64,000 nucleotides of DNA, taken from the NCBI RefSeq assembly GCF_048403405.1, contig NZ_CP183135.1, one strand, 5' to 3'. The notes beneath the pieces are model-generated. The model was not told the DNA's origin. It ran no database searches and saw only the letters and a program-made list of their open reading frames with translations. This DNA comes from Escherichia coli. GTDB lineage: Bacteria > Pseudomonadota > Gammaproteobacteria > Enterobacterales > Enterobacteriaceae. The translations under genes and the position numbers were made by a program. Below, in pieces: positions 15,194 through 24,805 of the stretch. Positions within the stretch are counted from its first letter, which is position 1, and the number at the start of each line of letters is the position of its first letter.

Positions 15194-15221
15194 GTGCAGA
15201 CAGAAACCGTAAACACCGGCA

Positions 15222-15449
15222 TTGACATGCCGGGGAAGCCCTTATAGTACAATAATTCTCTATATCCAAACTGACCCCGATGAGAAAAGCATGGAGACGT
15301 TGAGCACCAATCTGCAACTCGCCCGGCTGGTTGGCGTTCAGGGGACGCCGGCAACCATCATTGGCGACGAGATGATCCCCGGCGCGGTATCGTGGGAGAC
15401 CCTTGAGGCGGTGGTGAAAGAAAAACTGGCGGTGGCCCATGCTCAGTAA
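15222..15449 (+). pseudogene. 3' fragment of a DsbA-like thiol:disulfide oxidoreductase gene (ScsC-like)
   Basis: C-terminal ...LARLVGVQGTPATIIGDEMIPGAVSWETLEAVVKEKLAVAHAQ resembles DsbA/ScsC C-termini; no N-terminal catalytic region present. Exact 5' limit of homology not determined. Confidence 0.4.
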
Positions 15450-15945
15450 ACTGCGCCGCTGGCTGCGTGAAGGCGCGATCTTACTGGTTGTGCTGGCTGG
15501 CGTGATAATCCTGCTGGATGTCTGGCGTTCTCCGCAGATGCCGGCCATGTTTGACAGCACGCCGCTGCATACGCTGGACGGGGAAACCGTAACGCTGGCG
15601 TCGATCAGTGAAGAACGCCCGGTGCTGCTCTACTTCTGGGCGAGCTGGTGCGGTATCTGCCGTTTCACCACGCCGGATGTCGCCCGTTTGCAGTCGGAAG
15701 GGGAGAGCGTCATGACCATCGCGCTGCGTTCCGGTAATGACGGGGAGGTTTCCCGCTGGTTATCGCGTAAAAGGGTGACGTTCCCCGTCGTGAATGATAG
15801 CGGCGGTGAGATATCACGAAACTGGGAAATCAGCGTCACGCCAACGCTGGTGGTGGTGTCGAAGGGGCAGGTGGTAACTACGACCAGCGGCTGGACCAGC
15901 TACTGGGGCATGAAGTTACGTCTGTGGCGGGCAGCCATGTTTTGA
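15439..15945 (+). CDS. membrane-anchored thioredoxin-like protein (TlpA/ScsD-like)
   Basis: 168-aa ORF with N-terminal hydrophobic segment and WASWCGICR thioredoxin-type motif. Confidence 0.6.
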   Translation: MLSKLRRWLREGAILLVVLAGVIILLDVWRSPQMPAMFDSTPLHTLDGETVTLASISEERPVLLYFWASWCGICRFTTPDVARLQSEGESVMTIALRSGNDGEVSRWLSRKRVTFPVVNDSGGEISRNWEISVTPTLVVVSKGQVVTTTSGWTSYWGMKLRLWRAAMF

Positions 15946-16181
15946 TAGCGTGCCGGGGAAACCCGGCATTTTTTAACCCATTGTAAGGATGTGTAAAACG
16001 AGCGGAGAGCGTGTTTTCTGTTATTTTTGCTGCTTTTTTACCGACGCCAGTTATTATTTTTTACCGCTGCCTGATGTTGCAAACCTGAATTGATAATGGC
16101 ATATCTGTTTTAATTGAATGAAAGTCTGTGATACGTTCAGGCGATTTTTTCGATTTCCATTTTGACAGGGATAACAATTCA

Positions 16182-16943
16182 ATGCGCAAGGGTAAAATTA
16201 TTGTTGCATCAATGATGGTGCTTTGTGTCCTTATTTTTGTTGCGGCGGCGGCATGGTTTATGCTGTTCCAGGGAGAAATGACGGAGCCGACAGAGGAGGA
16301 AAAACAGGCGGCAATTTTACACGCTGCGGGCCTGATGAAATCAGAGACCCAGGATAAAAAATCAGTCGAAACGCTCTATCATCGTTATATTATTCAACGC
16401 CATGTTAATTTAGATTCCGGCGAACTGGTGGCTGGCAGCAGCGCGGACACCGCGCGGCAGAAGTGTGAAAAACTTGCCCCTGAACGCGACCCAGCGCAGG
16501 TTCGTCAGCGCTGTACGGTGGCGGATGTGTTCTTTGTGAAAGATAAAAATAATGAAATTCAGCAGGTTATCATTCCAGTTACCGGTAAGGGTGCGAAATC
16601 CATGATGCATGCGTTTCTTGCTCTGGGGCTGGACGGTCGTACGGTGAGAAATCTGTATTATTATCAGCAACGGGAAACGCCGTTTCTGGGGGCTAGGGTG
16701 GAAGACGCCAACTGGCGCAAACAGTGGCCAGGGAAACGATTATTAGATAACAGCGGACATCCTGCATTGAAAATAGTACAGGATAAACCTGAACATGCCG
16801 ATGAATATACCGTTGACGGTATTTCCGGTGCGACGTTGACATCAACCGGCGTTGAGAAAAGTATTAACTACTGGATGGGGCCGCAGGGATATGGTCAATT
16901 CTTACAGCGTCTTGCCAGCGATCGAAATAACCTTAATCTTTGA
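16182..16943 (+). CDS. membrane-anchored periplasmic FMN-binding-domain protein (NqrC/RnfG-like fold)
   Basis: N-terminal TM helix (IIVASMMVLCVLIFVAAAAWFMLF) and a DGISGATLTS motif typical of covalently flavinylated FMN-bind domains. Confidence 0.55.
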   Translation: MRKGKIIVASMMVLCVLIFVAAAAWFMLFQGEMTEPTEEEKQAAILHAAGLMKSETQDKKSVETLYHRYIIQRHVNLDSGELVAGSSADTARQKCEKLAPERDPAQVRQRCTVADVFFVKDKNNEIQQVIIPVTGKGAKSMMHAFLALGLDGRTVRNLYYYQQRETPFLGARVEDANWRKQWPGKRLLDNSGHPALKIVQDKPEHADEYTVDGISGATLTSTGVEKSINYWMGPQGYGQFLQRLASDRNNLNL

Positions 16944-22513: not shown

Positions 22514-23633
22514 ACGTACCATGCTCTGGCTGCTGGTGTGGCGGGCGCTGCGTCTGCGTTTTCAGCGGGTCAGCGTGGTGTTTGCCGCGCTGATGGTGGG
22601 GGCGACCATCGTGACGGCGCTTTCTGCCGTCTGGTTCGACATTAACACCAAAATGAGCGAAGAACTGCGCACCTTCGGCGCGAATTTTTACATCGGGCCG
22701 GGGCACGGTTCCAGTATGCCGCAGCAGGAGTTGCAGAGCATTCTCGATCAGGCGCCGCAGGGGCTGGTGCATGGCGCCAGTCCGTGGTTGTACGGCATGG
22801 CGCGTACCGAGCTGGAAAAAGTGGTGATGGTTGGCGTGTGGTTCGAGTCGCTGCAAAAACTGGTGCCGTACTGGCAGGTCACCGGTAGCTGGATTGGCGT
22901 TAGTTTTGACGACCGTAATGCGATGATCGGCGTCAAACTGGCGGAACGCCTCAACGTGCAGCCGGGCGACAGCATCACGCTGGTGGATCACAATCAGCGT
23001 AAGAATTTGCAGATTAAAGGCATTGTGGAGTCTGGCGATGCGACGGACAACATGCTGATCGTCAGCCTCGACGTGGCGCAGGCCTGGCTGCATCAGCCGG
23101 GCAAAATCAGCCACGGCTTGCTGAGCGTCAGTAACGATGTCGGCCAGGTGGAGAACTATGCCAGCCGGTTGCAGGCGCAGTATCCTGACCTGGAGATTCG
23201 TCCGGTGCGTAAGGTCTCTGCTTCCGAAGGGCAGGTGCTGGATAAAATTAAAGGTCTGATGGGACTGGTCTCGATCGTGATTCTGGCGCTCTCTTCGCTG
23301 TGCGTGAATACCACGCTGATGGCGATTGTCGGCGAGCGGGCGCGCGAGTTTGCGCTGCAAAAAGCGCTTGGTTCCAGCAACGGCGATATCGTGCGGCAAA
23401 TTCTGCTGGAAACCAGCATCATCGCGCTGGCGGCGGTGGCGTGCGGCTGGGTGCTGGGATATTTGCTGGCGCAACTGTTGGGATTAACGGTGTTTAATGC
23501 CGCCATTTCACTGCGTCTGCCGGTGTTGCCCATTACTCTGGTGTTGTCTTTACTGGTCGCCATTCTGGCGGCGATTGTTCCGGTGCGACGCGCGGTAAGC
23601 GTCGAGCCTGCTAAAGTGCTGAAAGGAGAGTAG
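22503..23633 (+). CDS. ABC transporter permease (FtsX/MacB-like), second copy
   Basis: ATG at 22503 overlaps the stop of the upstream permease; similar architecture. Confidence 0.7.
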   Translation: MAAKRTMLWLLVWRALRLRFQRVSVVFAALMVGATIVTALSAVWFDINTKMSEELRTFGANFYIGPGHGSSMPQQELQSILDQAPQGLVHGASPWLYGMARTELEKVVMVGVWFESLQKLVPYWQVTGSWIGVSFDDRNAMIGVKLAERLNVQPGDSITLVDHNQRKNLQIKGIVESGDATDNMLIVSLDVAQAWLHQPGKISHGLLSVSNDVGQVENYASRLQAQYPDLEIRPVRKVSASEGQVLDKIKGLMGLVSIVILALSSLCVNTTLMAIVGERAREFALQKALGSSNGDIVRQILLETSIIALAAVACGWVLGYLLAQLLGLTVFNAAISLRLPVLPITLVLSLLVAILAAIVPVRRAVSVEPAKVLKGE

Positions 23634-23637
23634 CGCC

Positions 23638-24333
23638 ATGTCCGTTACGCATATCCCTCAGGTGGCGATCGAAACCCGCCACTTATACAAACGGTTCGGT
23701 GACGTTACCGCCCTGGATGACATTAATCTGCGCATTGCGCAGGGTGAATTTGTCGCCATTATGGGCGCTTCTGGTTCTGGTAAAACCACGCTGATGAATA
23801 TTCTGACGTGCCTTGATACGGCGACGGAAGGGCAGGTGTTTCTTGATGGCACCGATGCCGCCGCGCTGGATGAAGAGGGGCGCCGTCGCTTTCGCGCCGA
23901 GAAAATCGGCCTGGTATTTCAGCAGTTCCATTTGATCCCGTTCTTAACTGCGCTGGAAAACATCATGCTCGCCCAGCATTACCACAGCGTGGTGGATGAA
24001 GCGGCGGCGAGGAAGGTGCTGGAACAGGTAGGGCTTGGGCATCGTGTGACGCACCTGCCGAGCCAGCTTTCCGGTGGTGAGCAGCAGCGTGTGTGTATCG
24101 CCCGGGCGCTGGTCAACGAACCGCCGGTTATTTTCGCGGATGAACCGACGGGCAACCTGGATGAAGAGAATGAGCAGCGGGTGCTGGATCTGCTCACCGA
24201 TCTGCATCGTCAGGGGCGCACGATTGTGATGGTGACGCACAACCCTGCGCTTGGGCAGTTTGCCGACCGTATTCTGCGGCTGCAACACGGTAAATATCTG
24301 GGTGAGGAGGCCAATCAACATGCGCTGGCATAA
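23638..24333 (+). CDS. ABC transporter ATP-binding protein
   Basis: Walker [10 protein letters not shown], signature LSGGEQQR, Walker [12 protein letters not shown]. Confidence 0.88.
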
Positions 24334-24805
24334 TGTGCTGTTACTCGCGGCGGCGATCCTGATAAGCGGGTGTAAAGAAGAAAAGCTGGCGGTCGGGGCA
24401 CCGGCCCCGGCGCTGGCGGCGTTTGATCTGCAAGGCCAGGAGTCAGGCCTTGAACGCTGGCAAGGAAAGGCGGTGTACCTGAATTTTTGGTCTGCGGGAT
24501 GCGGGGGGTGCCTAGCGGAAATGGACACGCTGGAAGCGCTGAGCAAAAAATGGGGCGATAAAGTGGTGGTTGTGGCGGTCAATACCGACCCTGAAACGGT
24601 CAGGATCAACGATCTGCTGGCAAAACATCAGATAACCTATCCGGTGGTGCGCGATCAGCTCAACATTACCCAGGAACGTTATCAGGTGATCGGCACGCCG
24701 ACCTCCGTACTGATTGACTCCGAAGGACGCGTTCTGGAGCTACACCAGGGTATGCGTAAGCCGTCTGAGTTAGAGGCCACGTTTGCGCGCCTGGCGGCGC
24801 GATGA
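24320..24805 (+). CDS. thioredoxin-like lipoprotein (TlpA family)
   Basis: Lipobox LISGC after signal peptide, FWSAGCGGC motif; RBS GAGGAGG upstream of ATG 24320. Confidence 0.65.
   Translation: MRWHNVLLLAAAILISGCKEEKLAVGAPAPALAAFDLQGQESGLERWQGKAVYLNFWSAGCGGCLAEMDTLEALSKKWGDKVVVVAVNTDPETVRINDLLAKHQITYPVVRDQLNITQERYQVIGTPTSVLIDSEGRVLELHQGMRKPSELEATFARLAAR

Follow-up and report, generated by a model that had tools for sequence, protein, structure and literature searches.

A plasmid-borne copy of the FetMP-Fls iron-uptake operon in Escherichia coli and its neighbouring NqrC-like gene

Iron-uptake systems that combine an FTR1-family permease (FetM) with a periplasmic P19-family protein (FetP) have been described in Escherichia coli, Salmonella, Campylobacter jejuni and Yersinia pestis under several names, with FetMP-Fls, FetMP-FetABCDEF, cFtr1-P19 and FetMP-Flp all denoting one and the same system, and conservation of the P19-FTR1 cluster extends to 33 species in six phyla (PMC6083913). 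Here we describe a copy found in a 64,000-nucleotide stretch of E. coli DNA (contig NZ_CP183135.1 of RefSeq assembly GCF_048403405.1, hereafter the window), in which positions 17183-24805 hold an intact copy of the characterised FetMP-Fls iron-uptake operon with all genes on the same strand. We read this locus, with a probability of about 0.93, as a Fur-repressed FetMP-Fls operon that was captured from a Citrobacter-like cbpA-scs-agp region and has spread on IncF plasmids in DNA bounded by the insertion sequence (IS) IS26.

FetMP was studied in uropathogenic E. coli F11 (Koch et al. 2011), for which FetP structures are available (PDB 3NRP, 3NRQ, 5I0X and 5I0Y). According to two later papers, the periplasmic, dimeric, copper-loaded FetP of F11 binds iron and passes it to FetM, which carries it over the inner membrane by way of its REGLE and REGAE motifs (PMC7285068, PMC10783030), and the first of them describes the F11 system as nearly identical to the plasmid-encoded one (PMC7285068). 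In Salmonella the genes fetM, fetP, flsD, flsA, flsB, flsC, flsT, flsE and flsF are carried by plasmid pUO-StVR2 and by genomic island GI-DT12 (PMC7285068). Garcia et al. (2020) found that deletion of fetMP-flsDA on pUO-StVR2 brings cell iron down five-fold while manganese and zinc are unchanged, and that the same deletion impairs growth, competition, invasion of HeLa cells and replication in macrophages (PMC7285068). In C. jejuni every fet gene is needed when iron is limited (PMC10783030), and a genetic requirement for the downstream fls/fet genes has been shown both there and in Y. pestis. The module is known, finally, from pRS218 and pUTI89, IncFIB/IIA plasmids of extraintestinal pathogenic E. 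coli (ExPEC), where it is described with a Fur box, an IS26 flank and a truncated agp gene; for pRS218 the listed products are ScsC/ScsD, an NqrC subunit, a high-affinity Fe2+ permease with its periplasmic component, an ABC transporter, a thioredoxin and glucose-1-phosphatase (PMC4155114).

The window contains the seven genes in the order fetM-fetP-flsD-flsA-flsB-flsC-flsT, all on the + strand, an order common to most of the 80 chromosomal loci that we fetched for comparison, Yersinia included, with exceptions mainly in short or truncated contigs. All seven open reading frames (ORFs) are intact, as are the Fur box and the promoter. The first gene, fetM (17236-19176, or from 17290 in RefSeq), encodes an FTR1/ILT-family iron permease (Pfam FTR1, 2.7e-43) whose REXXE motifs are REGLE at residue 371 and REGAE at residue 489, numbered from ATG 17290; a predicted periplasmic domain of about 350 residues precedes the first REGLE helix, and the N-terminus resembles a signal peptide. 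The second, fetP (19217-19744), encodes a periplasmic P19-family copper-containing iron-binding protein (Pfam PF10634, 7e-70). Its mature form, residues 26-176, matches the F11 FetP of PDB 3NRP and 3NRQ at 100% of residues, with no difference detected, and the engineered variants 5I0Y (E46Q) and 5I0X (M90I) depart from it at those ligand positions only. Identity with the crystallised protein means that all of the P19 metal ligands are present (H44, E46, M90, H97 and H127 in mature numbering). An earlier note on this DNA, made from the sequence without database searches, had let its identification of a FetMP/P19-type cluster hang on the FTR1 and P19 metal-binding residues and on the absence of better matches to an unrelated transporter family. 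The REGxE motifs and the FetP ligands are in place, and the best matches of the proteins fall in the expected families.

Downstream of fetP lies flsD (19848-21227), the counterpart of C. jejuni fetA, which encodes a polytopic membrane protein with a periplasmic Cys-rich FtrD-like/DUF2318 domain (PF10080, 3.5e-28; CLLC and CVAC motifs in the translation) and a YHS domain (PF04945, 9.8e-17). The genes flsA (21230-22513; NCBIfam) and flsB (22503-23633) encode two MacB/LolC-type (type VII) ATP-binding cassette (ABC) permeases, each with MacB_PCD and FtsX domains, whose nearest solved structures are MacB, LolC and LolE. These three proteins belong to the type VII or 'mechanotransmission' ABC transporters. 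The ABC ATPase itself, of the LolD/MacB/FtsE type, is encoded by flsC (23638-24333; NCBIfam), and flsT (24320-24805) encodes a periplasmic TlpA/ResA-type thioredoxin with a CGGC motif (NCBIfam ResA, 3.9e-27; matches to ResA and TlpA in the PDB). A sequence search for relatives of FetM and FlsD among solved structures found none. Successive genes from flsD through flsT either adjoin or share a few bases, and a spacer of 103 bases separates fetP from flsD. Beyond flsT lies flsE (24830-25315, + strand), encoding a 161-residue hypothetical protein with weak helix-turn-helix similarity in two stretches; a Pfam search gave nothing at E < 0.001. Among the fetched loci flsE occurs in Citrobacter and Intestinirhabdus only, most fet clusters being without it. 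Every element that the earlier note had named was found at or near the place it gave, and its gene list holds from fetM to flsT, although it had left out flsE and the NqrC-like gene at 16182-16943 that is discussed below.

How does this locus compare with the described systems? The earlier note had likened it to FetMP-Flp and cFtr1-P19. Gene order and domains agree with this, but 'similar' understates the case: the module is the published system itself, already known, and not merely FetMP-like. The nine genes of pUO-StVR2 and GI-DT12 are as in the window, and on pUO-StVR2 flsF, a truncated histidine phosphatase gene, corresponds to the agp' of the window; the Fur box and the truncated and intact IS26 flanks are also alike, whereas the plasmid backbone differs. 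On pRS218 and pUTI89 the genes are again the same, with 99.9% identity over 17000-25400 in pRS218, but the mobile surroundings differ from those of the window, which has Tn10, IS10, IS1 and IS26 to the left and IS4321 with a Tn3-family transposase to the right. The C. jejuni locus (cj1658-cj1665) shares the seven-gene order, the domains, the Fur box before fetM and the spacer after fetP, and FetP matches C. jejuni P19 (PDB 3LZL) with an E value of 6.6e-59. The C. jejuni proteins are, however, 27-57% identical (PMC7285068), two thioredoxins (FetE and FetF) stand in place of one, and there is no NqrC-like gene. In Y. pestis (y2370-y2362) order and content are as in the window; the Yersinia loci show identities of 70-72% for FetM, 87-89% for FetP, 57-59% for FlsD, 76-84% for FlsA-C and 55-63% for FlsT, but lack NqrC-like, scs or agp genes alongside, and their Fur palindrome is more degenerate, with three to four mismatches.

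Two further families share components with the module. The FtrABCD systems of Bordetella and Brucella likewise have an FTR1-family permease and a P19-family protein, FtrA (PDB 8VV5 and 7R4Z, both matched by FetP). Membership of this group was rejected, the inventory containing no FtrB cupredoxin and no FtrD polyferredoxin, and FlsD sharing PF10080 only. E. coli EfeUOB, which also has an FTR1-family permease, was rejected in the same way: FetM reaches 119.2 bits with the EfeU equivalog model, whose cutoff is 255, and the cluster has no EfeO-like or EfeB-like ORFs. In place of FtrB, EfeO and EfeB partners, the window has genes for a MacB-type ABC transporter and a thioredoxin.

Evidence for Fur control comes from the region upstream of fetM, where the earlier note had pointed to a strong Fur box. 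At 17197-17211 the box reads TGATAATAATTATCA, a perfect 7-1-7 palindrome, and overlaps the -10 element of a sigma-70-like promoter candidate (GCGACA, 18-nt spacer, TATCAT; 17183-17212, + strand; 9/12 in a consensus scan). It is the single match to the 7-1-7 motif in the 64 kb even with one mismatch allowed (chance expectation 0.02). The window also carries sit (49830-53279) and iuc (56548-62299), the latter for aerobactin, so that the three metal-uptake systems that the earlier note had counted in this segment are all present. The Fur sites of sitA (49737-49755) and iucA (56550-56568) served as internal positive controls of the Fur scan: against the 19-bp consensus the fetM box scores 15/19, equal to the sitA site and below only that of iucA (17/19), and the three top consensus sites of the window are its three Fur-type iron promoters. 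Since scores of at least 15/19 turn up in 11 of 100 shuffled windows, the consensus score alone is moderate evidence. The palindrome, its position and its conservation are the stronger evidence for a Fur site: comparison with 21 chromosomal loci of at least 77% FetM identity, where DNA identity with the window is only about 80%, shows the palindrome at an unchanged distance from fetM, with no more than one mismatch in 18 of them and no more than two in all 21. Promoter-scan matches were not enriched over shuffles, and simple promoter and terminator scans carry little weight.

The start codon of fetM is probably misplaced in RefSeq. The annotated ATG at 17290 leaves FetM with no signal peptide, while the in-frame extension 5' of it encodes a basic N-region, a hydrophobic core and a cleavage site of the VWA|ST type. 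Orthologues from Citrobacter to Haemophilus retain this extension as coding sequence; in the nearest relatives the conserved start aligns with GTG 17236, and the pRS218 annotation uses the same start. The RefSeq start probably cuts off the signal peptide, and GTG 17236 is favoured. Given that start, 25 bases separate the end of the Fur box from the start codon.

A second regulatory element may lie in the fetP-flsD spacer, which contains a perfect 17-bp GC-rich stem-loop without a T-run (19754-19793, + strand; -41 kcal/mol, z -4.8). Nearly all orthologous loci have a GC-rich hairpin at this point; the sequences are unrelated, and several, those of Yersinia among them, are canonical terminators. 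This positional conservation suggests a conserved way of expressing fetMP above the fls genes, and the hairpin in the window may act as an attenuator or as an mRNA stabiliser.

These features allow a scheme for how the operon would work. When iron is replete, Fe2+-Fur bound to the palindrome over the -10 element would block transcription, as the sequence and the conservation of the site suggest. Under iron limitation a single transcript of about 7.6 kb would run from the promoter at about 17183, with its start predicted near 17219, to flsT, perhaps through flsE, with the hairpin after fetP possibly setting the ratio of fetMP to fls expression. Copper-loaded dimeric FetP would bind iron in the periplasm and hand it to FetM, through which it would cross the inner membrane by way of the REGLE and REGAE motifs. 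FlsD, with its Cys-rich and YHS domains, the MacB-type FlsABC and FlsT would supply or remove redox equivalents for an iron redox step coupled to transport, by a chemistry that we infer. Because FlsA and FlsB are MacB/LolCE-type permeases, periplasmic mechanical or redox work by FlsABC seems more likely than substrate import.

Copper recurs often enough around this module to ask whether it mainly handles another metal (copper, or perhaps manganese or lead) instead of iron. The crystal structures of FetP (PDB 3NRP family) contain copper sites, the YHS domain of FlsD is of a kind found in copper-handling proteins, and copper-tolerance genes adjoin the operon, the authors of the pRS218 study listing copper tolerance for these neighbours (PMC4155114). 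The copper of P19 and FetP is nevertheless regarded as a cofactor of the iron step, the promoter carries the conserved Fur box and not a CueR or CusR site, and deletion of the module lowers iron, not manganese or zinc (PMC7285068).

The adjoining genes themselves tell against copper as well. The first, scsC' (15222-15449, + strand), is a 75-codon ORF that keeps the C-terminal ~56 codons of an scsC truncated by IS26; it matches residues 137-190 of Salmonella ScsC (PDB 4GXZ; E 2.8e-25), and Citrobacter has a full-length ScsC at the equivalent position. The second (15439-15945, + strand) encodes a membrane-anchored TlpA-family thioredoxin of 168 residues with a CGIC motif (NCBIfam thioredoxin/ResA/DsbE); it is scsD-like and syntenic with scsABCD of Citrobacter, and the upstream genes of pRS218 are named ScsC/ScsD in the same way (PMC4155114). 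A terminator-like hairpin with a T-run (15950-15969, + strand) ends the scs transcript. Located 5' of the Fur box and closed off by their own terminator, the scs genes fall outside the Fur-controlled operon. The earlier note had counted thioredoxin-like proteins in the cluster, which holds for flsT but not for these two genes. With scsA and scsB missing and scsC truncated, compared with the complete set of the Citrobacter locus L002, scsC'-scsD is the remnant of a copper-tolerance locus. The truncation, the separate terminator and the loss of ScsB add to the evidence from the operon, and we hold a role mainly in the handling of another metal to be extremely unlikely.

The operon is part of a single uninterrupted block of + strand genes that extends from 15194 to about 26088. 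Its left limit is a 149-bp 3' fragment of IS26 (15045-15193, minus strand), whose terminal repeat GGCACTGTTGCAAA occupies 15180-15193 on the minus strand. Its right end is formed by agp' (flsF; 25437 to about 26088, + strand), the 5' half of a glucose-1-phosphatase gene (NCBIfam Agp). The earlier note had placed the cluster between an IS26 fragment and a truncated agp, and both bounds are confirmed: 15194 is the first base past the IS26 fragment, and agp' retains residues 1-217 of 413.

Both flanks are rich in mobile DNA. To the left, an IS10 end with RNA-OUT (14930-14999) adjoins the IS26 fragment; this was the sole match in a search of Rfam, which gave no RNA family inside the fet cluster. 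The IS10 copy lies in 12953-15044, with a transposase ORF at 12953-14080 and an IS1 inserted at about 14131-14858. Further left are tet(B)/Tn10 genes. The interrupted IS10 is part of a nested mosaic of IS elements beside the fet module. To the right, homology to Citrobacter DNA stops within agp at 26071. This breakpoint is followed by about 250 bp and then, near 26324, by a Tn3-family-like terminal sequence; IS4321 is close by at 26601-27605. Next comes an ORF for a 999-residue Tn3-family transposase (27684-30683), overlapped by an IS26 copy whose ends are at 30093-30106 and 30899-30912.

What lies between these bounds resembles a chromosomal locus. In Citrobacter the order is cbpA, a dsbA-like gene, scsA-scsB-scsC-scsD, an NqrC-like gene, fetM-fetP-flsD-flsA-flsB-flsC-flsT-flsE, two extra genes and full-length agp, and the plasmid segment is a contiguous piece of such a region, cut by IS26 within scsC and cut on the right within agp. 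The identity of gene order from scsC through agp supports the suggestion of the earlier note that this is captured chromosomal DNA, but DNA identity to the best Citrobacter genomes is only 81-84% (72-76% in the scs and nqrC part). Between flsE and agp the plasmid module is without the two extra genes, which were either missing from the donor or lost by deletion; in Citrobacter sp. MGH106 (L002, 18203-19734) this interval holds a 251-residue gene of unknown function and one for a 247-residue ArsR/SmtB-like regulator.

Three candidate sources were rejected. When 100,044 species-representative genomes were scanned with FetM as query, the best match was Citrobacter, yet identity was 90-92% for the FetM protein and 81-84% for DNA. 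Contexts with an exact FetM were considered as native loci, but all ten of those listed (six on contigs of more than 1 Mb) border IS or resistance DNA or host genes; since none has an intact scsC and agp, these are secondary integrations. E. coli chromosomes have no counterpart beyond matches of 43-46 bp near 25355-25400, at about 1,380 places and with 93-95% identity, and we suspect that this match reflects the conserved region upstream of agp. The donor, with a gene order like that of Citrobacter and no sampled species fitting it, would be an unsampled Citrobacter-like relative.

The spread of the module on plasmids is extensive. Copies of the core (17000-25400) with at least 99% identity occur in 848 plasmid records, 817 of which cover at least 80% of it, and the earlier note was correct in placing similar modules on IncF plasmids. 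Most of the plasmids are conjugative, an IncFIA/FIB/FIC plasmid being one example, and the great majority come from E. coli; a few are from Klebsiella, Salmonella or Shigella. Among complete E. coli genomes the core is found in 814 of 5426, about 15%. In these genomes and in the 817 plasmid records identity is 99.8-100%.

A rival reading is that on this plasmid the module is silent cargo, dragged along by IS26 beside resistance genes and of no use to a host already served by sit, aerobactin and chromosomal iron uptake. The module is embedded in remnants of IS26, IS1, IS10 and Tn10, its left boundary varies among plasmids through IS26 erosion (L082, L086 and L090), and near-100% identity may just mean recent spread. 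On the other hand, the seven ORFs, the Fur box and the promoter have all stayed intact, and in the variants eroded by IS26 the core from fetM to flsT is mostly kept while the flanks vary. The same module, moreover, gave a measurable advantage in a Salmonella with many other iron-uptake systems (PMC7285068), and the genes are over-represented in neonatal meningitis E. coli (NMEC) relative to faecal E. coli (PMC4155114). We therefore consider silent cargo a very unlikely description of the module.

Against a functional Fur-repressed operon of Citrobacter-like origin several points still weigh. Published work leaves undecided whether the redox step is one of ferric reduction or of ferroxidation and which part the ABC transporter plays in it. 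The function of the F11 system is cited second-hand, through PMC7285068 and PMC10783030. That the window matches pUO-StVR2 is deduced from statements in the paper together with matches of at least 99% to Salmonella plasmids. The promoter call at 17183-17212, with its 9/12 consensus match, is weak, and Fur control and expression on this plasmid are predictions from the DNA.

Between scsD and fetM lies a gene that is absent from the published operon. It encodes an orphan NqrC-like FMN-binding protein (FMN, flavin mononucleotide; 16182-16943, + strand) with a single N-terminal transmembrane helix and the flavinylation motif GISGATLTS. The protein is a full-length NqrC homologue: it scores 395.9 bits with NCBIfam NqrC (cutoff 336), matches Pfam FMN_bind, and aligns with Vibrio NqrC (PDB 7XK3; E 5.7e-49) at the SGATLTS flavinylation site. 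The nqrA, B, D, E and F genes that membership of an Nqr complex would require are found neither in the cluster of the window nor beside its orthologues, and in calling the product 'Na(+)-translocating NADH-quinone reductase subunit C' RefSeq probably over-annotates it.

Besides the plasmid module, 14 of the 80 chromosomal loci have an NqrC-like gene directly 5' of fetM; they come from Citrobacter, Superficieibacter, Raoultella, Klebsiella, Enterobacter and Sodalis. The motif GISGAT[LM]TS is kept in 12 intact-looking chromosomal copies at 50-76% identity, the other two (L005 and L013) looking disrupted. The nqrC-fet block occurs in at least four chromosomal neighbourhoods without common flanking genes, and this implies that the NqrC-like gene travels with the fet cluster.

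Does the functional unit then exceed the published operon, with the NqrC-like flavoprotein as a ninth component that serves FetMP as a periplasmic FMN redox relay or ferric reductase? Such a role would fit the linkage in unrelated neighbourhoods, the retention of the flavinylation motif despite divergence and the lack of any other nqr gene in the cluster. There is also a precedent: in Gram-positive P19 clusters an FMN-binding gene is found where Gram-negative ones have a thioredoxin (Liu et al. PMC6083913; Meheust et al. PMC8238504). The gene is, however, a separate transcription unit, with a stem-loop after it (16976-17013, + strand; -30.6 kcal/mol, z -4.4) that is a likely terminator before fetM, and with no Fur-like site upstream, where the best candidate has 6 mismatches in 14. 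It has been lost from some IS26-eroded plasmid and chromosomal copies (L086) as well as looking disrupted in L005 and L013, and the clusters of Yersinia, Pectobacterium and Pasteurellaceae do without it. In Salmonella, fetMP-flsDA alone complemented the deletion (PMC7285068). A ninth component is thus possible but doubtful. Tentatively, we suggest that in the Enterobacteriaceae/Sodalis lineage the NqrC-like protein might be flavinylated by the ApbE enzyme of the host, anchored in the inner membrane facing the periplasm, and act as a flavin electron relay or ferric reductase for FetMP.

The module is a published fitness and virulence determinant, and its occurrence here shows iron uptake travelling on IS26-rich IncF plasmids together with resistance genes, sit and aerobactin. 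With iron uptake and resistance genes on the same plasmids, antibiotic selection co-selects iron acquisition. To what was known of the system the present analysis adds modest points: the probable error in the RefSeq start of fetM, an unsampled source that is Citrobacter-like in its gene order, and the linkage of a conserved orphan NqrC-like gene to the cluster, which is absent from the literature examined. Thioredoxin-type and FMN-type P19 systems are currently treated in the literature as alternatives; this lineage has both genes. If the NqrC-like protein does serve FetMP, the lineage would be a hybrid of the thioredoxin-type systems of Gram-negative bacteria and the FMN-type systems of Gram-positive bacteria.

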